From a virus (taxonomy: Duplodnaviria; Caudoviricetes), in the IMG/VR virus record IMGVR_UViG_3300020375_000001, positions 143,749 through 207,748 of that record: a stretch of DNA of 64,000 nucleotides. The stretch is one strand, 5' to 3'. Below are positions 13,152-62,712 of the stretch, piece after piece. Below the pieces are notes generated by a model that saw only the letters and a list, made by a program, of their open reading frames with translations, was not told where the DNA came from and ran no database searches. The stretch's first letter is position 1; the number at the start of each line of letters is the position of its first letter. The position numbers were made by a program, and so were the translations under genes.

Positions 13152-16100
13152 ATGTCCGACGATATAGACATCGATGATGACGGCTTTGATAGCTTTGATG
13201 ATTTCGATGCTCCTGATTTCGACGGTGATGTCGGGGGCGGTAATGAATCCCGCACGCCGATTACGGCTGCAGCCAGTAGCTTCACTGAAGCGGCAACTAA
13301 CGACTTAATGAGCGTTAATGCGGCTAAGCAGATAGCTCGTAAGGGATTACCCGAAGGCTATGGCGAGGCCATGGACCTCGTTGATGAGACTGCAGGCCGG
13401 GCTTCTGACCTATACGATAAAGCCGAGAAAAGGTTAGAACCTGCTATCAAATCCACGAAACAGGCAACCCGTGGATTGCTTCCTAAGGCAGAGGGTATTC
13501 TTCCTAAAAAACTATACGAACGTATGGCTAAATGGTCGGAGGATGATGATAACAGTGGTCCTCGAGTCAATGCCGATGAGGAATCTATTTCCACTGCACT
13601 AAGTAGTATCTTCACTACGCAGTTAGAACAACAGGAAGCCGACAAGCAAGAACAAACCGTCCGTGACACATTAAAAGGTGAAGTGGAAGGGGAGCGACAC
13701 GAGCAGAACATTGACAAGTTGAGTCTGATTCAAAAGTCGATGTCGCGCTTGGTTGGCTATCAAGATTCTGTTACTGCAGCGTACCAAAAGAAATCATTGG
13801 ACCTACAGTTTCGTCATTACTTCGCAGCGCGTGATTTACTTAAATTACAAACCGCAAGTAATGCTGATGTTATCACAGCCTTAAATGACATCAAAACAAA
13901 CACAGGTTTACCTGACTGGATTAAAACCCAGACTAACGAAAACTTTAATGCAATGCTCTCTCAACGGTTGATGGGTGGTACCGTTGATACTGTTAGTGAC
14001 TACATGGGCAATTTCCGTGAGAACCTTTTTAAGGGTATTGAGACGAAAGTCATGGGTACTGTGGGAGAGGTTGCTGACGGTATTCAGGAAATTACTGGCG
14101 GTATCAGTCAGATGAATGAAGCCCAAGCAATGATGGCGGATTTCGATGATGGACCAACTAAAAGCGGGGCGGTGCAAGCTGCCGAGATGGCTGGTGGCAT
14201 TGGTGGTAGTACGGTTGCTAATAAAATTATTAACTTTATTGGTAGGCGGATGCGTAAGGAAACTGGCGCAACTAAAGCCATTGCTGAAAAGGGTATTGAA
14301 GCATCTAACTTTGTCAGAGGCTTCGACGGTAGATTGAAGGAGTTTATAGATACTGCGGATAGTCGCGATGGAATGCTAGGTGTAGCTGGACGCTTCTTAC
14401 AGGACGTTGCACCTACAATGAATACTACGCCAAGTGTACTGCAAAATCTTTCTAAGGATGCTACAGCTTCGGTTGAGTGGGATTTATTGTCTCGCCGTAC
14501 TTTGGTGGAAATCATTCCTGAGTATTTAGCACGCATTACTCAAAACACCGAATCTATGGCAACGGGTAAAGCTGCTGAGAAGATGGTGTACAGTAAGCAA
14601 TCTGAATCTTTCATGACAGAATCGGATGCTATTGCTGAAGCTACTGATAAGTTTGTGCGTCGTGATGAGATTACGGAATACCGTAGTCGTTCTGATGAGT
14701 TACTGAATAGACTGTTTAGTGGTGCACGTATTTCACCTGAAGCCCGTATGGCAATGTCTGAACAGTTACACACCGACCTGAGTCGTGGTTGGAACTTTGA
14801 TGTACGTCGCTATGTAAACGCCGATGCCTTTGAATCACACCTAGACCCTGATGCTGTTGCTGAACTACGTGACTTTTTCCGCGATAAGTTTAAAGCGAAA
14901 GAGAAGGTCGTTGACGGTAAGAGTAGTTGGGATTTTGAGTACGGTGAGCAAACCGGTAAGTTACTTGGTAGCTTGCAGAATCAGGGTAAGAATCTTCAAA
15001 ATCGAATCCCTGAAATGCAAAGTAGTATCAATGAGTTCGTTGCCACTGGCGATAAAGATTTGTTGCGCGCTACGGGGTGGATTGACTCTACCTCAGGTAG
15101 AGACCAGTTTAACTTACAGCGCATGAATAACCTGATGACCGGTCGTCTTGAATTAGATGACTTACAGTCGGAATGGGAACGTGACCGCTTGAAAGAGGAA
15201 CGGGGTGCTGAGAAAACCAAGTGGCAAGAGCGCGACCGTGGACAATGGGTAGTTGACGATAACAGTACTGTGGAACCTGTTAAGAGCGAGCGGGCTGAGA
15301 AATCTAACCTACCACCTGTCATGAGCAGTGAAGACCGTAGTATTATCTCTGGTCTGAATGCAATGATGGGGCAGTTAAGTACTACCAGTAAAGCAAGCCT
15401 TGACCGTTTAGCGGAAATGGCTACTAACAATGTAGAAGCTTCTGAATTCAACAGTCAACAGGTACAAATCCTGACTGAGATTCGTGACCTACTGATTGCA
15501 CAGCAGATGACTGGCTTGTCCAGTGAAGACGCAGCAATGGGTGCGGAGCTATTGAAGAAGTTTACTGCGGCGGCTAACTGGGAACAACCTAAATGGTACA
15601 ATACCCTTACTAGTGGCATTGTCGATGGTGCTAAAGCTGGCGCGGGGATGTTAAGTAGTTACTACGGTGCACTTGGTAATGCTGCGTCATCCACTGTCGG
15701 TTTCTTGAAAGAGAAGGGTACTGCAGCTTGGGGTAAAATCCAAGAAAAAGGTGCCGCACTGTCAGATGTCTACATAAACGGTATGCAAATGCCTGCACTG
15801 CGTGCACAGCTTATAAAGGCTGGTCGCTATGTGGACTCGCAGACGGGGAAGGTAATTACTAGCTTAGACGATATCAGTGGCGAGGTCATTGATAAAGTAA
15901 CCGGCAATGTAGTTATCTCAGCTGAGGATTATCGTGGGGGTCTATTTGATAACCGTGGCAATACCCTGTTCGCTAAACTAGGTGCAGGAGCTCAGAAGTT
16001 AATCTCTGGCGGAATGGAAGCTCTGGGTAGCTACTATGGCTTTTTAGGTAACACTGCTGGTAATGTACTCACATGGGGCAAGGAGAAGATTACGGACCTT

Positions 16101-19100
16101 GACCGTAAACTAAGAACTGAGAGTGACGTATACGTTAAGAACCGTATGGGCGATGGTCCTGCATTATTACGTACTAAGTTGTTGCGTGGTGCATACTTCG
16201 ATATTGAAGGTAATCCTATCTTCTCTGTCGGGGACATTACGGGACCAGTCTTTGATGAAGACGGTAACCAGTTGATTAGTGACGAGGATATCTCTGCTGG
16301 CTTAGTTGACCCTCAAGGGGATGACATTAAGACTGCGGGTATTCTAGGCAACGGGTTAGGGATAGTTGGTGCTGGCATCGGCCTTGCTAAGAAAGGTGCG
16401 AGTAAAGCATTCAGTGCTTTGAAAACTTACTATTCTGGTCTGGGTCAAATCTCAGGTAGTCTACTTGACAAGCTAAAGCATGGCTTTTCTGGGTTTGGTG
16501 GTTCGGAAGTTGCAGAGACAATGAATGTCACGGCGACCAACGTATACCTTAATGGTAACATCATTCGGGAAGGTGAACCTTCGGTAGCTGAAAAGGCTGG
16601 TACCACTGTAAGCTCTGCTGTATCTACGGTACGTGAAAAGACCGGAGAGATGAGCGAGCAGTTGAAGGCCGCTACTGCATCCGTAAAAGAGAGGGCATCT
16701 GCTGAACTAAACACCGCCACAGCGAAAGCTTCAGAACTTACTGGGGCAGCAAAGGCCAAAGCGAAGGAAACCAAAGACAGTCTACTTGGTCGTGAGATTG
16801 GGGAAGACACGACACTGGTTGCTGACGCTAACGGTAATGTAAGCCTTAAGACTGAAGAAGGGGTTATTCCTGCTGGGGATGGTTCTACCAAAGGTTACAT
16901 GGCTGCATTACTTGCTTACTTCCATCGTCAGAGTCAACAAGATTCAGCCGATGGTGATGGCGATGGTCTACGTGATGGTGGTTGGCGCTCCAAACTCTTT
17001 GGTCGTAAGAAAACCGAAGACGACTCCACTGAGGACAAACCTAAAGAAGGGAACCGGAAAGCTGGTAAGGGTATGTTAGCTGGAATGGCTGGCTTACTTG
17101 GACTTGGCGGAGGGTCTGATGAAGATAGTGGGGATGGCGACAGTTTCGCAGGTGACGTTGCTGCTGAAGTTGCAGGGGAGTACGCTGCAGATAAACTAGG
17201 TGGTAAAGGTGGTGACAGTGATAGTGGTGGTAGAAGACGTACCCGTACGCCGAAAGGTAAGGGGAATCTAGCATCGCGAGCGTGGGGTGCAATTAAAGGT
17301 GCTGGTAGTAGCGTTAAGGAAATGGCTACCAATGCTAAAGGTCGTAGTATAATGGGGAATGCGAAAGCGTTAACCACAGGTACGGCTGGATTAGTTGCAG
17401 GCCTTGGTAAAGGCATTAAGTCATTCGGTGGTAAACTTACCTCTGGTCCTGGTTCTAGCCTGCTTAAAAAAGCAGGGCTATTTGGGGCAAGGGCTGGCCT
17501 AGGTTTACTGGGTGGTACCTTAGCGGCGGTAGGTGGGGTGGCGGCTGCCCCTATAGTAGCAAGTGCATTGGCTATAGCGGGTACTGCATGGACAGCCTAC
17601 GAAGTGGCAAGTGGTGTGGGTGGATTCCTGTTCCGACGTTCTGAGGCAGAACCTATTGAGCGTTATCGTTTCTTACAGTACGGTTTAAATCCGGATAACA
17701 AAGAGCATCGTGTGTTCCTGCGTATCTTGGAAGCTGGCGCTGCTGATAACGTTGAGTACATGGGACAGGATGGTACTAATAACCGTATCCTACTAGGTGA
17801 CGACCCTGAGTGGTTGTACGAGGCTATGGATTACATTGGTATCGATGCACATACGGAATACGAGGAAGACCCTGAAAATGGTGAGCGTTTTGGCAAGTGT
17901 TACAAATGGTTCAAGAATCGTTTTGAGCCTGTGTTCTTATTACACCATGGCCATGCTCGTCAGTTGGATGAAGACGTAGACCTACTTGACATTGACGATG
18001 AAATGGACGATGAACTGAAACATAGGTTTGTTGACCGTTCGTATTATCCCAATAACGGTGAGAGTCAATCGCCATACTTTGTGGATACGCCATTCATCGA
18101 AGGGTATACCATCGGCTACGATGACATCGATGCGCAACGTGACGCTCTATTAGCTGAATATAAAGCGTATCAAGAAGGGGACAAGGAAGAGTCGGGTATT
18201 GGTTCTAAAATCAAGTCGGCGTTAATGATGGCTACTCCGGTAGGCATGGCAATGAAAGCCGCTGAAACATTAACGAGTAAAGATGCTGGTACTGGTACTA
18301 AGGATGAGGAATCATCTGGAAGTATTAGTAAGATTCTTAAGGGTGGCCTTATGGCTGTTCCTGGGGTAGGCATTGGAGCAATGTTGTACAACATGTTCTC
18401 CGACGACGATGAGGAAGTGAAGGTGAAGGTGCCACAGTTTAAAACTGAAGACGGCAGTGACATCTCTCACTTGGATGCTATACGCTTCTACCAATACGGT
18501 GTGGGTAAACTTACTGATAGAACCGCTGCATTACTCTACCGTTTAGAGCGTGCAGTCTCTGCTGACCTTGCATACGCAGGGGATACAGTAGAGTGGTCTG
18601 GTAATCTGAAACGTATCTGGCACGATATGGCAACCGCCCTTGGCTACTCTAGAAGGGATGGTGCTGCTAGAGGGGAGTGGAACAAATGGTTTACCATTAC
18701 CTTCCTACCAGTGTTTTCAGCTTACGCCGCTGCATTAAGAAGTAAGTCCGTTAACGAAATTCACAGTCCTAAGCTGTCGAAGAAGGATATGTGGGAAGTG
18801 GCGAAAGTCATTGTTCTTGACATAGCCCCTCGCTTTGCGGGTATGTTGAGACGTGGACATGAAGCGGTGGCTAACGACGACATGGTTACTAAACTATTGT
18901 TAGCGTTAGAAGAACAGGCTAAGGTGAAAGAGAAAGAGTTTGAGCTAACTACCCCTAACACTAAAGGCCCTGTGGTCGATGGTGTTGCTCCGGTAATGAA
19001 GTTGACTAGTACTGTTACTAGCGCAGCGTCTAAAGGGGATACGGAAGCGAAGACATCTACTCCTACATCTACTCCGACAACAGTCAAGCGGAAACTGGAG

Positions 19101-20231
19101 ACTACCAAAACTGCTACAGGCGGTGACGGGTTCGTTGTACCTGCGGATGGAAACATTAGTTCCCCGTATGGTAACCGAGTCCACCCAATTGACGGTACAA
19201 AGAAATTCCATGCTGGCATTGATATCGCCGGACCGGAAGGTACTCCTATCGTGGCCAGTGCAAGTGGCGTTATCAGTCGTCGTGATTACTCACGTGACTA
19301 TGGTAATGTTATCTACATTGAAAACGATGATGGTACACATAGCCGTTACGCACACATGTATCGCTTTGAACCTGGCTATCGTGTTGGGGACAGAGTAGAG
19401 CAAGGTGCTAAAATTGGTGAGATGGGGTCGACAGGTGCGTCTACTGGTTCACACCTACACTTCGAAGTACGTAAAGATACGTATGATAAAAACTCAGCCC
19501 TAAACCCTCTGGACCTGTTTAACGGGGACAAGGCTACAAAGGCAAGAGAAGAAGTGGCCAAGGCAGTGAAAGCTGCTGAGGATGAGAAGAGTGGTAAGAT
19601 AGATACAAGCCTTGAAGGTGAGAATACTATTGCATCCACTGTGAAAGGTGAAGCGACTAACCACGATGCTAAACGAGAAGCTACGGCTAGGGTGAATACT
19701 CCTCTGGTGAAACCTGCTAACATGGTACCATCTACTCCGGTAATGGAAACTGTTAAGGTAGGCTACACTGAGGATGAGGTGGCTACATTAGCACCGACTC
19801 AACCTGTTACGGCTAAGAAGTTACCAACAATTAACCATGCCCCGGTTACACCGGTACGGAAACCTAAGCAGGCAGTTGAAGGTGAGCTAATCGTTGAAGC
19901 TGAGGTGTTACAGCAAAAACGTGCACAACTTGGTCAAGAAGTTGCAAATGCGAAAAGTGAGCAACAGCTCGAGTTAATCGGGATGATACTGCATCGTCAG
20001 TTAGAGTCTAACTATCGCATGGAAGAACTAATGGCTAAGGTGGTTGATAACACAATGGCTACAGCCGAAAGGGTAACGCCTGTTACACAACAAGCACAGA
20101 AAGACACCGGTAGCGTAAAGCCTAAACCAGATGCAAAAGCTGCTACTGGTAAAGAGCTAAACGCACTCTTCGCTAGTCGAGAGAAAACTAAGCCACTTTC
20201 GCACCCTCTACTTATGGGTCGAAACAAGTAA
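13152..20231 (+). CDS. Tape measure protein (phiKZ gp181-like) with C-terminal M23 peptidase
   Basis: 2359-aa helical/Gly-Ala-rich protein divergent from the vRNAP genes; M23 motifs HAGIDI, SRYAHM, STGSHLHFEVR. Confidence 0.88.
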   Translation: MSDDIDIDDDGFDSFDDFDAPDFDGDVGGGNESRTPITAAASSFTEAATNDLMSVNAAKQIARKGLPEGYGEAMDLVDETAGRASDLYDKAEKRLEPAIKSTKQATRGLLPKAEGILPKKLYERMAKWSEDDDNSGPRVNADEESISTALSSIFTTQLEQQEADKQEQTVRDTLKGEVEGERHEQNIDKLSLIQKSMSRLVGYQDSVTAAYQKKSLDLQFRHYFAARDLLKLQTASNADVITALNDIKTNTGLPDWIKTQTNENFNAMLSQRLMGGTVDTVSDYMGNFRENLFKGIETKVMGTVGEVADGIQEITGGISQMNEAQAMMADFDDGPTKSGAVQAAEMAGGIGGSTVANKIINFIGRRMRKETGATKAIAEKGIEASNFVRGFDGRLKEFIDTADSRDGMLGVAGRFLQDVAPTMNTTPSVLQNLSKDATASVEWDLLSRRTLVEIIPEYLARITQNTESMATGKAAEKMVYSKQSESFMTESDAIAEATDKFVRRDEITEYRSRSDELLNRLFSGARISPEARMAMSEQLHTDLSRGWNFDVRRYVNADAFESHLDPDAVAELRDFFRDKFKAKEKVVDGKSSWDFEYGEQTGKLLGSLQNQGKNLQNRIPEMQSSINEFVATGDKDLLRATGWIDSTSGRDQFNLQRMNNLMTGRLELDDLQSEWERDRLKEERGAEKTKWQERDRGQWVVDDNSTVEPVKSERAEKSNLPPVMSSEDRSIISGLNAMMGQLSTTSKASLDRLAEMATNNVEASEFNSQQVQILTEIRDLLIAQQMTGLSSEDAAMGAELLKKFTAAANWEQPKWYNTLTSGIVDGAKAGAGMLSSYYGALGNAASSTVGFLKEKGTAAWGKIQEKGAALSDVYINGMQMPALRAQLIKAGRYVDSQTGKVITSLDDISGEVIDKVTGNVVISAEDYRGGLFDNRGNTLFAKLGAGAQKLISGGMEALGSYYGFLGNTAGNVLTWGKEKITDLDRKLRTESDVYVKNRMGDGPALLRTKLLRGAYFDIEGNPIFSVGDITGPVFDEDGNQLISDEDISAGLVDPQGDDIKTAGILGNGLGIVGAGIGLAKKGASKAFSALKTYYSGLGQISGSLLDKLKHGFSGFGGSEVAETMNVTATNVYLNGNIIREGEPSVAEKAGTTVSSAVSTVREKTGEMSEQLKAATASVKERASAELNTATAKASELTGAAKAKAKETKDSLLGREIGEDTTLVADANGNVSLKTEEGVIPAGDGSTKGYMAALLAYFHRQSQQDSADGDGDGLRDGGWRSKLFGRKKTEDDSTEDKPKEGNRKAGKGMLAGMAGLLGLGGGSDEDSGDGDSFAGDVAAEVAGEYAADKLGGKGGDSDSGGRRRTRTPKGKGNLASRAWGAIKGAGSSVKEMATNAKGRSIMGNAKALTTGTAGLVAGLGKGIKSFGGKLTSGPGSSLLKKAGLFGARAGLGLLGGTLAAVGGVAAAPIVASALAIAGTAWTAYEVASGVGGFLFRRSEAEPIERYRFLQYGLNPDNKEHRVFLRILEAGAADNVEYMGQDGTNNRILLGDDPEWLYEAMDYIGIDAHTEYEEDPENGERFGKCYKWFKNRFEPVFLLHHGHARQLDEDVDLLDIDDEMDDELKHRFVDRSYYPNNGESQSPYFVDTPFIEGYTIGYDDIDAQRDALLAEYKAYQEGDKEESGIGSKIKSALMMATPVGMAMKAAETLTSKDAGTGTKDEESSGSISKILKGGLMAVPGVGIGAMLYNMFSDDDEEVKVKVPQFKTEDGSDISHLDAIRFYQYGVGKLTDRTAALLYRLERAVSADLAYAGDTVEWSGNLKRIWHDMATALGYSRRDGAARGEWNKWFTITFLPVFSAYAAALRSKSVNEIHSPKLSKKDMWEVAKVIVLDIAPRFAGMLRRGHEAVANDDMVTKLLLALEEQAKVKEKEFELTTPNTKGPVVDGVAPVMKLTSTVTSAASKGDTEAKTSTPTSTPTTVKRKLETTKTATGGDGFVVPADGNISSPYGNRVHPIDGTKKFHAGIDIAGPEGTPIVASASGVISRRDYSRDYGNVIYIENDDGTHSRYAHMYRFEPGYRVGDRVEQGAKIGEMGSTGASTGSHLHFEVRKDTYDKNSALNPLDLFNGDKATKAREEVAKAVKAAEDEKSGKIDTSLEGENTIASTVKGEATNHDAKREATARVNTPLVKPANMVPSTPVMETVKVGYTEDEVATLAPTQPVTAKKLPTINHAPVTPVRKPKQAVEGELIVEAEVLQQKRAQLGQEVANAKSEQQLELIGMILHRQLESNYRMEELMAKVVDNTMATAERVTPVTQQAQKDTGSVKPKPDAKAATGKELNALFASREKTKPLSHPLLMGRNK

Positions 20232-49654: not shown

Positions 49655-49762
49655 AAAACCATCTGGAGTGTGTTTAATACTTTATTGAGAGAAATAGTAT
49701 GCAGAGGCAGTATAGGCCTTAGCTGTCTCGGACGTATAACGAATTCGTTAGAGGAGTTCATT

Positions 49763-53299: not shown

Positions 53300-53490
53300 T
53301 TGTTTCTCCGGATGTCGGTTATTGTCAATATGATTAAAAGGACAAATAAAAAATGACCCATCAAAAAAATACATGGTCAGCTAATAGCCAAAGTTTACAG
53401 GCTATCCTATGAGCGCCGTCTCCGGAGATAGCGCTGTAGGTGCATAGTGTACCCTTATTTTTTTTCGAAAAAAACCATGGAGAATCTCCA

Positions 53491-53853
53491 ATGATTGTTT
53501 TGGATATCATTACGTCAACCGAAGATGGACGTAATAACTTCATTCCAGAACCGGGCCAGTTTTTAGTCTGCACCGATTCAAAGAAGTTATACCTTGGTGA
53601 CGGTAAAACCGTTGGTGGTGTAGCCACTACCAAGAAAGCAGAACGCTTGAGTTCAGGTCTCGATGATTTAGGTCTACGGGAGACTCTGGAATCGCACTAC
53701 GTTATTACCATCCCCGATGAAAAGGCTACCAGCGAAACAGAAGGTACTTTGTTTTTGATTACTGATGAAACATCTAGTCACCCTCTTTACGGTGCCCCCA
53801 CTCTCCCCGATGCCAATGACCACGTTGTTGGCGACATCGTGTTCGTTTATTAA
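53491..53853 (+). CDS. Small fibre adaptor with MTD-N-like domain (start moved to 53491)
   Basis: PEPGQFLVCTDSKKLYLGDGKTVGG; C-terminal VGDIVFVY; GGAG SD. Confidence 0.7.
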   Translation: MIVLDIITSTEDGRNNFIPEPGQFLVCTDSKKLYLGDGKTVGGVATTKKAERLSSGLDDLGLRETLESHYVITIPDEKATSETEGTLFLITDETSSHPLYGAPTLPDANDHVVGDIVFVY

Positions 53854-53865
53854 GGAGTCTGTCTA

Positions 53866-56679
53866 ATGGAACAATTAGATGTTTTAATGCACGACCAGCA
53901 CTCCACACTACGTGTTCGCCAAATTGCTCAAAAGCAAACGGATGGTACGTGGCGCTCTTTGTACGCTCTTAACAACAACGTAACAATCGAGACGGCATGG
54001 AATACTGGTGTTACCACTCAAACTCAGTGGGGTACTATCTTTAACACATCACGCATGACAAACAGTGCTTTTGAGACTGGTAAAACGACTTCACAGTCAA
54101 CGACCACCAACTGGACGACGTCACGCACAACTGATGTATCACAGCTGACCGCTAAGTCTACCCAAACGGAATGGACTACTAGCCGCCAGACTGAGCATAC
54201 CACTGACCAGGCCACTAATACCAATTGGAACATCCAGACGCAGACAGTGTTTACAACTAACACATCTACGACTACCAATTGGACGTCTAGTCGACAAACG
54301 GATTATAATTATTCTAAGTCGACGACTACTCAGTGGACAACCGCTGCTGAAACTGAACTCGTTACTTCACATAACACGACAACTGAATGGACCACGTCCC
54401 ATTCGTCAAATACCATGTGGGCAACCAGTCACAGTACAGATTATTCTACCTCACATTCTACCACCACTACTTGGTCTACCTCTGACACTACTTCAAAGAG
54501 TACCACCACCCAGTGGACAACGGTTGTGAGCACGGATAAGACTACCTCGAAAAGTACCACTACTACGTGGACAACTGGTAACACGACTTTGAAGACAACG
54601 TCTACTAGTTGGGCAACTCTTCGTAGCACCAGTAATTCAACATCGAAGAGCACCACTACTACGTATAATACCTCGCATTCTACCAGTCATTCAACGGTAA
54701 CCAGTTACCTGACTGCAAAGACCACGTCGTATAATACCAGTAAGTCAACCACTACCAGTTACACGACAACTTTTGGCACAAGCCGTAGTACATCTACCAG
54801 CTGGAACACTAGTAAGTCAACCACAAAGACTGCGTCTAAGTCTACGACCACAAGTTACAATACTTCGTGGAATACGTCACGTGGCACATCCAAGTCAACC
54901 AGTTATTCTGGCGGTACGTCTAAGTCCACTACAACGACTTGGGGGACTTCTAAGACAAAGTCAACGTCACGTTCCACGTCAAAAACGAGGTCTACGTCTC
55001 GCTCAACTACCAAGTCTGCCAGTCGCACCACGTCATGGAGCACTAGCTATCAAACGGTAACTGGTGGGGCATTTGATGAAGGTCCGGTATCTCGAACTAC
55101 GACCAGAAGTACATCTGGTACAACAAGATGGAACTATTCGGCTACTACGTCATGGAGCACCGGGTATAGTAAAAATACTTCGTGGTCGACTGGATACACC
55201 GGTAACACTAGCCGTGGGACTACCACGTCGTATAATACGACTAAAGGTAAGACCACGTCGTATACAACAACGTTTTCGACCAGTAAAGGAACTTCGAAGT
55301 CAACCACTACTTCTTGGGGTTATTCTGCGACAACCACGTACGCCACCTCTAAGAATACAGTGACGTCGTTTAATACGTCTCGTGGCACATCCAAGTCAAC
55401 TACGACTACGTGGGGTACATCGCACAGTACTAATAAGAGTACTTCCCATAGCACCAGCACCGGCTATAGTACGGTGTATGCTACGGCACGTTCTACTAAC
55501 ACTGGTTGGACAACCACGTATAACACCAACGTATCGACCTCATCGTCGTTTTCAACGTCGTATACGACTAACTATAGTACTAGTAAGTCAACGACTACCC
55601 AGTGGACTACTACAGGTAATACCGATAAAGTAACGGGTCAGAGCACCACCACTTACTTTGGAACTACTTGGAGCACTAGTCAGTCTACTACGACTACGTA
55701 CTTGACGGCTAAAACCACAGAGTATCAAACCTCTTTTGGTACCATGACCTCGTATCAAACGTCGGCTTCGACGGCCACGTCATATACGACTATTCATGTA
55801 ACGGACCGTACGACCAGTCAGTCAACCAATACGGCGTGGACAATAAGTTCAACGACCAGCGTAGCCATGTCTACCCAGACTTCAACGGTATGGGGAACAC
55901 AGCGGTTAACGGATGAGGCGCGTAGTGCGTCTACTACTACCGCATGGACTACGTCCTACAGTACGGATGTATTGACTGATGCAACAACCACTTCCAGCTG
56001 GATGACCGATTTCCAACGTTCAACTGATGCATTAACTGGTCAGAGCACAACGACAGAATGGACTACGTCTGCGGGAACTCAGAGTGGTTGGGTAACGTCT
56101 TACTCGACTAGTCGCGCTACTGCTGCATTTACGCAGTCACAGTGGAGCACTACTCGTGACACTATTGCCACGGTAGGTGAACAAGTAACATCTGCAAGCA
56201 CCACATGGTTAACGTCTCACACAACAACCAGTTCTTTCACTACCTCAGGTGGACAGGCTCAGGTTAAAGATACTAGCTGGGAAACTTCAGCAAGTACTCT
56301 GACTGTGTGGACAACAACTACAGTAGTTGACGGTGTTACTAGTAACACTGACACGCTTCGCAGTACTAATACTGTTTGGTCTACAACGGTACAAACCACC
56401 ACTACAGTGGCTGGTGACCGTACTACGACTACAAGCTGGACTACGTCTTATACTACCAACGCGGAAGTAACGTATACCACTAACGCACAATACACCACTC
56501 AGTGGAGTACAGCGAGACAAACCGATGTGTTGAATGCAACTTCAATATTGACATCGACTCAATGGACCACTACTGATTATTACGGTGTAACGCGTCAGAC
56601 ATCACAAGTAGCATCGACTGCTTGGATTACTGGTTACGAACGTCAAACCACGTGGGTGACAAGCCGTACTACATCTTAA
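53866..56679 (+). CDS. Thr/Ser-rich fibre-like protein predicted to form a giant beta-hairpin (937 aa)
   Basis: AAGGAG SD; aromatic-x-Thr repeats; mirror complementarity around D404-E405 (i+j=809). Confidence 0.85.
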   Translation: MEQLDVLMHDQHSTLRVRQIAQKQTDGTWRSLYALNNNVTIETAWNTGVTTQTQWGTIFNTSRMTNSAFETGKTTSQSTTTNWTTSRTTDVSQLTAKSTQTEWTTSRQTEHTTDQATNTNWNIQTQTVFTTNTSTTTNWTSSRQTDYNYSKSTTTQWTTAAETELVTSHNTTTEWTTSHSSNTMWATSHSTDYSTSHSTTTTWSTSDTTSKSTTTQWTTVVSTDKTTSKSTTTTWTTGNTTLKTTSTSWATLRSTSNSTSKSTTTTYNTSHSTSHSTVTSYLTAKTTSYNTSKSTTTSYTTTFGTSRSTSTSWNTSKSTTKTASKSTTTSYNTSWNTSRGTSKSTSYSGGTSKSTTTTWGTSKTKSTSRSTSKTRSTSRSTTKSASRTTSWSTSYQTVTGGAFDEGPVSRTTTRSTSGTTRWNYSATTSWSTGYSKNTSWSTGYTGNTSRGTTTSYNTTKGKTTSYTTTFSTSKGTSKSTTTSWGYSATTTYATSKNTVTSFNTSRGTSKSTTTTWGTSHSTNKSTSHSTSTGYSTVYATARSTNTGWTTTYNTNVSTSSSFSTSYTTNYSTSKSTTTQWTTTGNTDKVTGQSTTTYFGTTWSTSQSTTTTYLTAKTTEYQTSFGTMTSYQTSASTATSYTTIHVTDRTTSQSTNTAWTISSTTSVAMSTQTSTVWGTQRLTDEARSASTTTAWTTSYSTDVLTDATTTSSWMTDFQRSTDALTGQSTTTEWTTSAGTQSGWVTSYSTSRATAAFTQSQWSTTRDTIATVGEQVTSASTTWLTSHTTTSSFTTSGGQAQVKDTSWETSASTLTVWTTTTVVDGVTSNTDTLRSTNTVWSTTVQTTTTVAGDRTTTTSWTTSYTTNAEVTYTTNAQYTTQWSTARQTDVLNATSILTSTQWTTTDYYGVTRQTSQVASTAWITGYERQTTWVTSRTTS

Positions 56680-58539: not shown

Positions 58540-61500
58540 ATGTCAATCGAGCCTATTAATAAATACCCGTTCGATAGTACTGCTGAGTCACCGACGAATT
58601 TCTTTCAGGATGAACGTCATGTGATTGAGCCGGATGGTTATAAAACACGAGTGGTGAGAGCTGGTCCTTTTTACAGCGAAACCCTAGTTGTTCGAACACC
58701 GTCTTCTATCGAACCGTTAGAGCGAGGTAAAGATTATCTCGTTAAGTATCTCTTTGAAGATGCGACACTAAAAACAGGTAAAGAAGTACACATTGCCATT
58801 TCAATGGTAGACCCTAACTGGCATGGGGAGCTTTTAATCTCTGGTCAAGTTGTGGGTGGTATGTATTCCTCTTTATACCCTACTGTGGTTGACGTGGTCA
58901 ATGGAATTCGTAAGAATTACGAAAACGTTGACTATAACGACTTAACCAATTTGCCAACTGCTTTCCCACCGGTATCACATCCTCACCATGTTAATGACTT
59001 GACTGGTATGGAGACACTGATTGAAGCAGTGCGTGAAAACAACCGTGCTATGAACGGGTCCTTGTTGTTCGATACCCGCCCATTAGAACGTTTGATTCGT
59101 CAGTCTGTTAATCGTACTGACCGTATTCAGCGACAGCCCTTTGAAGGCTCAACGTACGTCGGTCGCCATACCGGACCTATGACCTTTATCATGCCCGGTA
59201 CTCAAACACACAACTCTAACTTTGTGGCACGTATCCAGATTCAGAACCATGAAGGGTTTGAAATCCTTACGGTGTCTGGTCAGGAAGTCATTGAGCGCAT
59301 CGAGAAAGTCAAAGTACATGGTACAACGGCTTATGCCGTGGATATCTACCGTGACCGCAATATGCGCATCTGTGTATCAATTGGTAACGACACCACCGAG
59401 TGGGTAGATGCCACCATTGCCATTGAAAGTATTCTGTGGAGCGTGGATGACCCTGTGTATCGTGAGGTACCTTTACGTTGGTCACAAATGTCCGTCAATG
59501 AGTTGAAGACTCGTGAACCGACCCATATGGAGAAAATATTGGTTGTTGGTTCGCAGGCCCTGGGTAAACTGTACGGATACAGCGACGGCATTCCGATTGA
59601 CCTTGGTGCTGAAACCGAACCGTCTGAAACAACAGAGCTTACGGAAGAGGAAGCACAGCTTCGTGCTATTGAAAGTACGCTGCGGTCACTTCAACCGCAC
59701 AGCTTTGGTACGTTGAGTCGCCCTGAGATTGAAGGGGTTAAGATTAACCAATGGGTTAGCTCTTACGAAACTGGGGACACCATTATTCGTGTGGCCAGTA
59801 TCCCGGAAGGCATGATTGAAGACATGGACAACTCACTGCGTTGGGTTTTACGTGTTAACGATTTAGACGGTTATGTGTACTCTGAGGCAGGAATCATTCT
59901 GTCTGATGGGTCCGTGGCTTGGCGCTTTACTGGACGTGAATTATCCGACTGGCATTATTGGGAATTCGGACGGGCTATCCAAGAACGTTTGGAGATGGCA
60001 AAAGTTCCTGCTGGGGTATTGGAGACAATTACTCAGCCTGAACAGCTTGACCCGTATATCCTGAACACTGTTCCAACCTGGGGCACTGCATGGGATACTG
60101 CCTACGGTACCACGTATTCAACCACTGAGTACGAGAAGGTTAATACCAACTGGCTTACAGAAGCATCGCCAGAGGTTCAGACTAGCCGTTCTACGAGCTG
60201 GACAACTATGGACCTTACCAGTAAAACCACCACCATTCAAGGTGACGGTGAGTATCAGACACTGTGGACTACTACGAAGTCAACCGAGACTACGTATAAT
60301 ACTGGGTACAATACCGATACGTCCAGAAGTACAAGCAAGTCTACTACGACTACTTGGACAACTGCGACCGGTAAGACTACCGACCGTTCTACGTCGCGTG
60401 CGACTAATACGGCTTGGACTACGTCCTACAGTACCACTAAGTCACGTACTACTGAACTGGGTACAACTACTACCTGGTCTACTGCGCGTTCAACAACGAA
60501 ATCGCGTACAACTACAGTTAGTACCGGCGGGACTGCGACTACAAGTCATAGTACCACTACATCGTACAGCACGAATTATAGCACCAGTTATAACACTAGC
60601 TATAATACGTCTAAGTCGACAACTACTGTCTTCGGTACGAATAAGTCAACAACCACGTCTTATAATTCAAGCTACACAACGAATTATAATACTACCTTCG
60701 GTACGAATAGAAGCACTAACACGACTTGGTCAACCTCGAAGCCTACTTCGAAATCGACTACGACTAGTTGGGGCGCGTCACGTAACACCACGAAGAGTAG
60801 AAGTACTACCAAGTCTGCTAGCCGCACCACTTCTTGGACGACTAACTACCAGACACTCATTCGTGAGTCGTTTGATGAAGGTCCTGTTAGTAGAGCCACG
60901 TCGCGTACGACTGAGGCCACCACGTCTTGGAACTACTCGGCAACAACCAGTTGGACGGTTAATACTTCGTACACCGCAAGTAAGTCGACCACTACATCGT
61001 ACAACACGAGTTATAATACTAACCGTGGCACTACGACTACCTGGAATACTTCTCGTGGTACAAGTAAGTCGACCTCTAAATCAACTAGCAGGTCAACTAC
61101 AACTGCTTGGAACACCTCTAAGTCAACTACGACTACATGGGGAACCTCGCATACAACCAGCAAGTCCACGTCACACTCGACGTCTAGGTCTACTACCACA
61201 AGTTACTCCACCGGGGTTAGTGGGAATACGTCTTGGACAACCAGTTACAGCACTAACACTTCAGTTAGTACTAGTGCGACCACTACTACCCAGTGGGCCA
61301 CAAATTACAATGCTACTACTTCTCGTTCTACTAACCAGTCAACGAACACTGTTTGGAATACCAGCTACTCTACCGGTAGCACAAAACAAACAAGTGCTTC
61401 TACTACAACGCAGTTTACTACTACGTTTAGTACTGTTACACAGGTTGCTACAAGTAGAAACACCAACACGGCATACCAGACTTCACGTGCAACCACTGGC

Positions 61501-62712
61501 TTCAGTGATGTAAGTGTAAGCTACTTGACCGAGGTGGAGACTTCAGTAACAACAACTGGTGAGAAGCTAACTACTTGGACAACGTCACACACGACAAGTT
61601 CTGAGCTGGTTAAGCAGACTGAAACTAGCTGGACCACTGACTACATTGGTGGTACCTCTTGGTCTACTTCACGCCTGACCAACCGAAACACTTCTAAGAC
61701 TACCACTACGGCAGTTGACATGAGTGCGACGACAACTGTGGGTACATCTGCGACTGTAACAACATCGTGGGTAACTTCACATGAGACGGCGGTAGAAGGT
61801 AACGTGGAAACGGCAACATCGTGGAACACGTTACGTCAGACATCATGGCTGACATCCGCATCTACAGTGACAGTCTTCAGTACTGTTGTTGATGGTGTAA
61901 CAAGAGAGACAATCACCTCTTGGACAACGGAGTTTACAACGACTGCGTCAACGTCCTTTAACACGGCTGCAACAACTCTGGTGGGAACTAATGCGACCAC
62001 TACTACGAGTTACGCAACCAGCGTTGAGACCGCTGTGGATGGCTCAGTAGAGACGACGACAAATTGGACAACCAACAAGTCTACGACTACTAACTGGACA
62101 ACTACGGATACAACTAGTTGGACAACTGGCGCTAACACTAGCGTCACTAAGACAACTGTGGGCAATACAGCTACTAGCTGGACTAGCTCGGTTGATACGT
62201 CGTACAACACTGGTGTGCTGACTGATACCCAATGGGCAACGAATTTCCATACTCGTTGGACAACGTCTACATCAACTGTGGTACAAACTGGTGCAACTGT
62301 TACGACCACTTGGTTAACTCAGGCTACCACAGCTGGACAAACCAACGTAGCGTTGCGTGAAACCAACACAGCTCAAATGGCTGAAGTGACCACAACTTGG
62401 TCTACAGAGACTACGGTTTCTGAGAACACAAGTCGAAGCACTGATGTTAGCTGGCAGACTGCGCACCCAAGTGACCCGACTACGTCGATTACTACAAGTG
62501 CGGCAATCACCACTGCGTGGGTTAACGAGCGTCAAACTTCCATTAGTACAAGCAGTAGCTACATGACAGCTATTGAATCTGCGTTCTTAACTGAACATAC
62601 ACAGCAGACTAACTGGTACACTAATGTGAACACTGACAAGCTTACTACAAGAACGTCCGAAGCGACGACCTCTGTAACCACGTCACGTGACACAAGCTGG
62701 AACGGTACGTAA
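58540..62712 (+). CDS. Virion-anchored fibre protein: baseplate-attachment N-terminus plus Thr/Ser-rich giant beta-hairpin (1390 aa)
   Basis: N-terminal YPFDSTAESPTN...VVRAGPFY domain; C-terminal ~870 aa Thr/Ser-rich, with mirror complementarity around D779-E780 (i+j=1559). Confidence 0.87.
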   Translation: MSIEPINKYPFDSTAESPTNFFQDERHVIEPDGYKTRVVRAGPFYSETLVVRTPSSIEPLERGKDYLVKYLFEDATLKTGKEVHIAISMVDPNWHGELLISGQVVGGMYSSLYPTVVDVVNGIRKNYENVDYNDLTNLPTAFPPVSHPHHVNDLTGMETLIEAVRENNRAMNGSLLFDTRPLERLIRQSVNRTDRIQRQPFEGSTYVGRHTGPMTFIMPGTQTHNSNFVARIQIQNHEGFEILTVSGQEVIERIEKVKVHGTTAYAVDIYRDRNMRICVSIGNDTTEWVDATIAIESILWSVDDPVYREVPLRWSQMSVNELKTREPTHMEKILVVGSQALGKLYGYSDGIPIDLGAETEPSETTELTEEEAQLRAIESTLRSLQPHSFGTLSRPEIEGVKINQWVSSYETGDTIIRVASIPEGMIEDMDNSLRWVLRVNDLDGYVYSEAGIILSDGSVAWRFTGRELSDWHYWEFGRAIQERLEMAKVPAGVLETITQPEQLDPYILNTVPTWGTAWDTAYGTTYSTTEYEKVNTNWLTEASPEVQTSRSTSWTTMDLTSKTTTIQGDGEYQTLWTTTKSTETTYNTGYNTDTSRSTSKSTTTTWTTATGKTTDRSTSRATNTAWTTSYSTTKSRTTELGTTTTWSTARSTTKSRTTTVSTGGTATTSHSTTTSYSTNYSTSYNTSYNTSKSTTTVFGTNKSTTTSYNSSYTTNYNTTFGTNRSTNTTWSTSKPTSKSTTTSWGASRNTTKSRSTTKSASRTTSWTTNYQTLIRESFDEGPVSRATSRTTEATTSWNYSATTSWTVNTSYTASKSTTTSYNTSYNTNRGTTTTWNTSRGTSKSTSKSTSRSTTTAWNTSKSTTTTWGTSHTTSKSTSHSTSRSTTTSYSTGVSGNTSWTTSYSTNTSVSTSATTTTQWATNYNATTSRSTNQSTNTVWNTSYSTGSTKQTSASTTTQFTTTFSTVTQVATSRNTNTAYQTSRATTGFSDVSVSYLTEVETSVTTTGEKLTTWTTSHTTSSELVKQTETSWTTDYIGGTSWSTSRLTNRNTSKTTTTAVDMSATTTVGTSATVTTSWVTSHETAVEGNVETATSWNTLRQTSWLTSASTVTVFSTVVDGVTRETITSWTTEFTTTASTSFNTAATTLVGTNATTTTSYATSVETAVDGSVETTTNWTTNKSTTTNWTTTDTTSWTTGANTSVTKTTVGNTATSWTSSVDTSYNTGVLTDTQWATNFHTRWTTSTSTVVQTGATVTTTWLTQATTAGQTNVALRETNTAQMAEVTTTWSTETTVSENTSRSTDVSWQTAHPSDPTTSITTSAAITTAWVNERQTSISTSSSYMTAIESAFLTEHTQQTNWYTNVNTDKLTTRTSEATTSVTTSRDTSWNGT

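Follow-up and report, generated by a model that had tools for sequence, protein, structure and literature searches.

In this study we analysed a window of 64,000 nucleotides (nt), the terminal 64 kb of a 207,748-bp virus record in IMG/VR (IMGVR_UViG_3300020375_000001), and in particular its gene P0001, which we call fibre 1. The window carries split multisubunit RNA polymerase genes and therefore belongs to a phiKZ-like jumbo phage. P0001 (positions 53866–56679 of the window, on the plus strand like all features of the fibre module given below) encodes a protein of 937 amino acids (aa) with a short non-repeat N-terminus, two mirror-complementary arms rich in Ser and Thr, a single turn and a C-terminal extension. 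Arm 1 comprises aa 45–404 (53998–55077) and arm 2, its mirror complement, aa 405–764 (55078–56157). Between them the turn F403-D-E-G-P-V408 (55072–55089) forms the centre of a register in which residue i meets residue j at i+j=809. The protein consists of 34% Thr and 18% Ser and has no Cys; its sole Pro, residue 407, lies in the turn. Our interpretation, to which we give a probability of roughly 0.75, is that P0001 is a fold-back antiparallel beta fibre of this jumbo phage with the turn at its tip.

Mirror register and partner code in P0001

The register was scored by counting pairs of an aromatic residue (W, Y or F) and a basic one (K, R or H) at every constant i+j. At i+j=809 there are 43 such pairs, compared with 26 at the runner-up register (823) and a mean of 3.7 over all registers. 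Null distributions were taken as the maximum over all registers, with the exception of a label permutation that was scored at 809. Plain shuffling of the residues gave 14.8±1.2 pairs (maximum 21), shuffling within parity and arm 19.2±1.4 (maximum 26), permuting the repeat units between aromatics 17.7±1.7 (maximum 25) and permuting the aromatic and basic labels over fixed special sites 23±3.5 (maximum 35). Since all four nulls lie below 43, both the positions and the labels are mirror-complementary beyond chance. The initial annotation of this DNA, made from the letters and their open reading frames (ORFs), had folded the chain in just this register, and the scan bears it out. All 18 pairs it had named are present, each summing to 809, and its count of aromatics facing K, R or H in the inner 143 positions needs only a small correction, from 26 to 25 of 29.

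Two further statements of that annotation stand in part. It had put nearly all aromatic and basic residues on one parity: all 34 aromatics of arm 1 do fall on odd positions, whereas those of arm 2 are even only until about residue 597. It had also let the register run without interruption out to W45–R764. For Thr this is correct, as the agreement between facing residues of face A (the odd positions of arm 1 and their partners) in being Thr or non-Thr holds to the N-terminus, with 98, 97, 90 and 85% in the distance bins to 400 and about 50% in shifted registers. The aromatic-basic signal, however, stays strong no further than about 240 residues away from the turn; beyond that distance Trp stands opposite Gln, Ala or Thr.

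Other origins of the symmetry were considered and rejected. Diagonal pairing (i+j=c±2) would have to show in registers 807 and 811, which score 7 and 3, and hence partners stand directly opposite each other. Chance symmetry of a tandem-repeat protein was rejected on the repeat-unit permutation, whose 17.7±1.7 pairs (maximum 25) compare with 43 observed. A palindrome at the DNA level was rejected as well, given that the DNA has no inverted repeat able to yield a protein palindrome, and Tandem Repeats Finder found no tandem repeat in the P0001 DNA. With neither inverted nor tandem DNA repeats, the symmetry exists at the protein level only.

The arms have two very different faces. In arm 1 the odd positions (face A) hold Thr or one of W, Y, F, K, R and H, and the even positions (face B) Ser, Asn, Gly or Ala. 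Overall, face A is about 50% Thr and about 40% W, Y, F, K, R and H and is nearly free of Ser, and face B is about 40% Ser, the rest including Thr, Asn, Gly and Ala. Across the register, face A pairs are either Thr-Thr (about half) or aromatic-basic, and the choice of partner is finer than these classes: over 11 fibres His stands opposite Tyr in 79 of 84 cases where about 39 would be expected (Fisher 9e-24), Trp leans to Lys and Phe to Arg. In P0001 itself His faces Tyr in 9 of 9 cases.

The C-terminal extension (aa 809–937; 56290–56676) is Trp-rich, has few basic residues, lies outside the range of arm 1 partners and has no mirror partner. Past the paired zone of both fibre genes of the window (56290–56676 and, in the second gene described below, 61600–62709) we observed Ser/Thr repeats that are rich in Trp, acidic and poor in basic residues and extend over 129 and about 370 aa. 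A search of the C-terminal extensions for a second mirror centre found none. Among orthologues the extensions differ in length by about 60 and about 120 aa, that is, in steps of about 60 aa.

Relatives, matched indels and a second lineage

The same pattern recurs in the second fibre gene of the window, P0002 (58540–62712; 1390 aa), which starts with a phiKZ-type virion-anchor N-domain (phrog_2163) and continues with a putative mirror-coded hairpin. Its register i+j=1559 yields 38 aromatic-basic pairs, with 24 in the next register and a null of 20.7±1.5, and is centred on D779|E780 of the turn SFDEGPV (aa 777–783; nt 60868–60888). Through the 267-aa neighbour of P0001 and the anchor domain we found five related jumbo-phage contigs of 206–222 kb, one of them from a Tara Oceans sample, which carry intact P0001 orthologues in the same synteny. 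In all six contigs the order is a small ORF, fibre 1, a gene of 255 aa (267 aa in the window), a radical S-adenosylmethionine (SAM) enzyme gene and fibre 2. For 13 of 13 fibre sequences (P0001, P0002 and 11 from the five contigs) the best register is centred on FD|EGP or, in one phage, on WDG|AGG.

The most telling evidence comes from insertions and deletions. Each arm was aligned separately against the window proteins, with d as the distance from the tip. Each indel in the paired zone has a counterpart of the same size at the mirrored position: fibre 1 of both L012 and L007 has +12 at d=49 in each arm; L014 has +22 in arm 1 and +18 and +4 in arm 2, at d of about 50; L010 has lost 16 and 14 residues in one arm and 10, 6 and 14 in the other (−30/−30); and fibre 2 of G001 has +56/+56 adjoining the tip. 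Indels that lack a counterpart are confined to the globular N-domain and to the C-terminal extension past d=410. As there is no DNA palindrome, no mutational mechanism would produce such matched indels, which calls for selection to keep residue i opposite residue c−i.

A second lineage, unrelated to and independent of the jumbo-phage fibres, carries the same code. In T4-like phages the genes for gp53, gp5, gp25 and gp6 are followed by a baseplate-wedge protein at the gp7 position, and these gp7-like proteins have a C-terminal Thr-rich region in which Phe or Tyr stands opposite Arg. In 18 of 19 members there is a unique peak (z 3–17) on a centre rich in Gly, Pro and Asn; the set includes the 'baseplate wedge subunit' of the cultured Stenotrophomonas phage vB_SmaS-DLP_6 (DLP6). 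To measure the balance of the arms we took as base anchors two motifs on which the aromatic-basic score does not depend, DNISVKELP preceding arm 1 and IPTTF following arm 2. In all of 16 proteins c−(a1+a2) equals 9 or, for one subclade, 8, over arm lengths of 247–334 residues. Covariation among homologues, which the initial annotation had proposed as a check, is thus seen both in the mirrored indels of the orthologues and in the balanced arms of the 16 gp7-like proteins.

No aromatic-basic palindrome was found in P0018 and P0017. P0018 (921 aa, metagenomic) has Trp/Gln-rich Ser/Thr segments (about 5–190 and 440–620) around a Gly-rich domain, and may use a different architecture written in a similar alphabet.

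The tips deserve separate mention. Within a genome the tips of fibre 1 and fibre 2 are alike, as we observed in L007 (6018–6620 and 12044–12646), in L012 and in the window (55072–55089 and 60871–60888). In L007 and L012 the paralogues share 60–90 nt of tip DNA at 100% identity between diverged flanks, and between genomes the tips vary (FDEGP in some, WGEDWDGAGG in another). This looks like gene conversion, and it suggests that the tip serves both fibres in the same function, as the place of contact with a receptor or of recognition by maturation enzymes. Two irregular tips were also noted. In fibre 2 of IMGVR_UViG_3300002038_000006 (L001, around 6380) a 19-nt deletion takes the turn codons (DEGPVS) and shifts the frame, and the arm beyond it is a perfect open frame in the +2 phase; the deletion may be a recent mutation, one variant within the population or an error of assembly at the tip. 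The two ends of one 218-kb contig (L008 and L009) both lie inside fibre 1 and overlap by just 39 nt. The 'direct terminal repeat' called for this contig is probably an assembly join induced by the repeats, with the real tip missing; when joined, the two arms give 77 aromatic-basic pairs in one register.

Gene neighbourhood of the fibre genes

Directly 5' of fibre 1 lies an ORF of 137 aa (53440–53853), probably starting at M18, with a weak match to an Mtd_N-type fibre N-terminal motif; the relatives keep it as a gene of 119–120 aa. Further genes upstream of P0001 encode a structural protein of the virion and a tail fibre that carries Mtd_N and fibre repeats. The phrog_2163 N-domain (about 170 aa) is found in P0002 and in a 542-aa protein at 49670, and is not present in P0001. 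A fibre role for P0001 is thus suggested by its gene context, namely the tail-fibre and virion genes upstream and the phiKZ-type anchor on its paralogue. Elsewhere in the window, a protein of 2359 aa (13152–20231) matches the tail-fibre family phrog_3201 over residues 2–1887 (E 3e-226) and has a C-terminal endolysin or metallo-endopeptidase domain at about 1990–2170; it is probably a virion-borne cell-wall hydrolase.

Two genes are kept between the fibre genes. P0003 (56691–57494; 267 aa, function unassigned) matches no Pfam or NCBIfam family. A language-model feature search of the Atlas pointed to LIC12162 and to polysialyltransferase or TagF-like GT-B transferases (score 0.91), and we treat a GT-B-type transferase as a lead only. 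Its AlphaFold2 (AF2) model, with a predicted local distance difference test score (pLDDT) of 40, is unusable. O-glycosylation of the Ser-rich face is conceivable. A blastn search of the neighbour genes against phage records gave no match.

P0004 (57463–58422; 319 aa) is a radical SAM enzyme with CxxxCxxC at residues 16–23, a CX10GX4C half-motif at 218–234 and three further Cys. It matches PF04055 at 1e-12 and is most like peptide and protein maturases. The best family matches are PapB (5e-24), QhpD, geopeptide, the cyclophane formers AmcB and YhhB and the dynobactin enzyme DynA, all of them far below the curated cut-offs and covering mainly the N-terminal core; the best solved relatives are CteB and anSME.

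A probable fold-back fibre, its rivals and known systems

An antiparallel fold-back beta structure for P0001 is well supported by these sequence patterns, as the initial annotation had predicted in setting i against 809−i: matched indels, balanced arms, His-Tyr specificity, the two-face pattern and the unique turn all agree with it. The beta conformation is suggested by the two-residue periodicity together with the Thr-rich face, and an intramolecular fold-back by the unique non-repeat Gly/Pro/Asp centre of every member and by anchor domains at one end only. In this model the body of the protein would reverse at F403-D-E-G-P-V408, so that residue i would lie beside residue 809−i in antiparallel beta structure; the turn would be the distal tip, and the N- and C-termini would meet at the base. 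The ladder of face A (Thr-Thr, Trp or Phe with Lys or Arg, His-Tyr) would fix the register, and face B, with small residues only, probably packs against other strands or bears sugars. At 3.3–3.4 Å per residue a length of about 80 nm would follow for the 240 well-paired residues and of about 130 nm for all 400; the initial annotation had predicted about 120 nm.

How the hairpins would associate is less certain. A closed oligomer, for example a six-stranded tube of three hairpins that has the small face B on its inside and would resemble the T4 gp37 needle, is about evenly balanced in our estimate. A lone two-stranded ribbon, as in the initial annotation, seems distinctly less probable. The facing pairs may be cation-pi, hydrogen-bonded or covalent. 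In T4 there is one copy of gp7 per wedge, and a monomeric ribbon would therefore be compatible with the gp7-like family.

Several points weigh against a fold-back fibre. It would be physically unusual for an isolated ribbon to leave both edges free over 100 nm. Face B has no cross-strand covariation, pair preference or size compensation in the true register, and the 129-residue C-terminal extension of P0001 is left without a partner. More than about 240 residues from the tip, Trp opposite Gln or Ala replaces the aromatic-basic pairs, and in any 60-residue window the period shifts (14, 18, 32 and 36) score almost equally, so that only the sum over whole arms singles out one register. The orthologues share kinship, and their counts are not all independent, though the gp7-like family is. 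Structure prediction was of no help: an AF2 model of residues 305–504 (the tip ±100), built on a 4-sequence alignment, has a pLDDT of 31 and is unusable (it draws strands 67–80 and 121–134 in the expected register, at a confidence too low for evidence), and the ESM Atlas model of P0001 has a pLDDT of 0.27.

The sequence of P0001 is self-complementary about its centre, and this would suit an antiparallel homodimer as well as a hairpin. Covariation is blind to which chain supplies the partner, so the mirror code might also reflect pairing between chains, in a head-to-tail dimer or an arm-swapped oligomer. However, a continuous dimer strand would need no special centre, whereas every member has a short non-repeat one rich in Gly, Pro, Asp and Asn, and a head-to-tail dimer would put anchor domains at both ends, whereas the phiKZ-type N-domain and the gp7-like wedge domain are found at one end only. 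We consider pairing between chains improbable; a swapped trimer is possible within it, and would be topologically close to the fold-back fibre. Far more doubtful still is an ordinary low-complexity, mucin-like stalk, disordered and probably O-glycosylated, with the palindrome as a by-product of tandem repeats. A Ser plus Thr content of 52%, the lack of a Pfam or PHROG family for P0001, the adjoining transferase-like gene P0003 (itself a lead only), the failure of structure predictors to yield a fold and the fair local scores of repeat-period shifts would all fit such a stalk. Yet permuting the repeat units abolishes the signal (17.7±1.7 against 43), repeats alone could not produce compensated indels and balanced arms, and one Pro in 937 residues, a strict two-residue periodicity, a Ser-free face and the His-Tyr specificity speak against disorder.

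Another possibility adds to the fold-back fibre rather than replacing it: the mirror code might template stapling, with the neighbouring radical SAM enzyme, of twitch/SPASM type, covalently linking facing Trp, Tyr or Phe to Lys or Arg, and His to Tyr, during or after fold-back, in the manner of RiPPs (peptides made by the ribosome and modified post-translationally). In 6 of 6 contigs the two fibre genes flank the radical SAM gene, its product resembles peptide and protein maturases, and the half-motif and spare Cys could hold an auxiliary cluster. A Lys-Trp C-C link is made by a radical SAM enzyme in darobactin (PMC9055067). The fibres are free of Cys, which excludes a thioether link and makes aromatic chemistry the obvious target, and it is specifically Tyr that stands opposite His. 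Nevertheless we regard stapling as unlikely. The family scores of P0004 are far under the curated cut-offs and concern the N-terminal core, and synteny in a single narrow clade is weak evidence. To our knowledge the radical SAM cross-linking enzymes described so far join residues only 2–4 apart, and they do so in unfolded peptides, not between partners hundreds of residues apart. Local motifs are equal or better targets ([KRH]-x5-aromatic, such as K-x5-W, 28 times; aromatic-x3-basic, such as W-x3-K/R, 33 times), and the gp7-like family carries the mirror code without a radical SAM gene within 10 kb. Other roles for P0004 could be the modification of a sugar, the epimerisation of residues or the oxidation of Ser. 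A literature search for radical SAM modification of phage structural proteins gave nothing relevant. If stapling were true, dozens of RiPP-type cross-links would sew the virion fibre shut, and it would be the first structural virus protein matured in this way; the adjacent gene raises a testable possibility of RiPP-style maturation of a virion protein.

If the fold-back is true, the arms of 240–400 residues would make these by far the longest hairpin-type elements known to us. A simple code sets out their register: Thr faces Thr, an aromatic residue faces a basic one and His faces Tyr. The fibres lengthen or shorten through matched blocks that both arms gain or lose, which makes them a clear example of structural co-evolution. 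The mirror-coded proteins probably serve marine jumbo phages and T4-like phages as the fibres that contact the host. The code is present in the cultured phage DLP6 and is thus directly testable, and protein nanofibres of a chosen length could be designed with its help. Since AF2, Pfam, PHROGs and the PDB are uninformative here, routine annotation would dismiss such proteins as low complexity. P0001 has no match among Pfam, PHROG and PDB sequences, a phmmer search of 1.8 billion representatives gave three weak matches (the low yield probably being due to compositional bias), and a literature search for a fold-back fibre of this kind found nothing relevant. The mirror-coded fold-back architecture therefore appears to be undescribed, in line with the statement of the initial annotation that it knew of no virion fibre built this way.

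Some known systems share single aspects of the proposed fibre. Designed Trp-zipper and cation-pi beta-hairpin peptides have 12–20 residues and 2–4 pairs; in them, too, cross-strand aromatic pairs at alternate positions of one face, close to a tight turn, fix the register. P0001 differs in being a natural protein with at least 43 pairs over hundreds of residues, whose contacts are deduced from covariation. The central sheet of OspA and the G5-E repeats of SasG/Aap are single-layer beta rods without a hydrophobic core, and resemble P0001 in being long, thin, polar and rich in Thr and Lys, and stable without a buried core; unlike P0001, they consist of successive short hairpins or meanders across the rod instead of one reversal, and have no mirror code. 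Streptide, dynobactin (with a His-Tyr link) and the products of cyclophane-forming enzymes are radical SAM cross-linked peptides. The likeness lies in the adjacent maturase-type gene and in a substrate rich in the same pairs of Trp, Tyr or Phe with Lys, Arg or His; their substrates, however, are short leader-bearing peptides, whereas here the candidate substrate is a virion protein of about 1000 aa and the enzyme match is at superfamily level. Mucin-like and serine-rich-repeat adhesin stalks share the extreme Ser/Thr content and the lack of a database family, but they are Pro-rich, aperiodic and disordered, whereas P0001 has one Pro, a two-residue periodicity, a mirror code and compensated indels.

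By its mode of working the nearest known system would be the needle at the tip of the T4 long tail fibre, gp37, which is reportedly represented by PDB 2XGF and the 2010 work of Bartual and co-workers (Bartual et al. 2010). There, as proposed for P0001, the chain runs to the tip and folds back so that its end comes back towards the base, the strands are axial and antiparallel, and the turn is the receptor-facing tip. In P0001 the tip reversal with antiparallel strands is indicated by covariation only. Membership in the gp37 type nevertheless fails: there is no sequence or profile match to gp37-type fibre tips in Pfam, PHROG or PDB. The gp37 needle is held by seven iron ions on HxH motifs of its three chains (PMC6957217), and a scan of P0001 for H-x-H found none, its 13 His residues standing opposite Tyr; its register would be set by Thr-Thr and aromatic-basic pairs, unlike that of the iron-held needle. 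The arms of gp37 measure tens of residues, those of the P0001 type 240–400. In conclusion, a phage fibre with fold-back topology is known; what is new is the undescribed simple sequence code that P0001 and its relatives carry.

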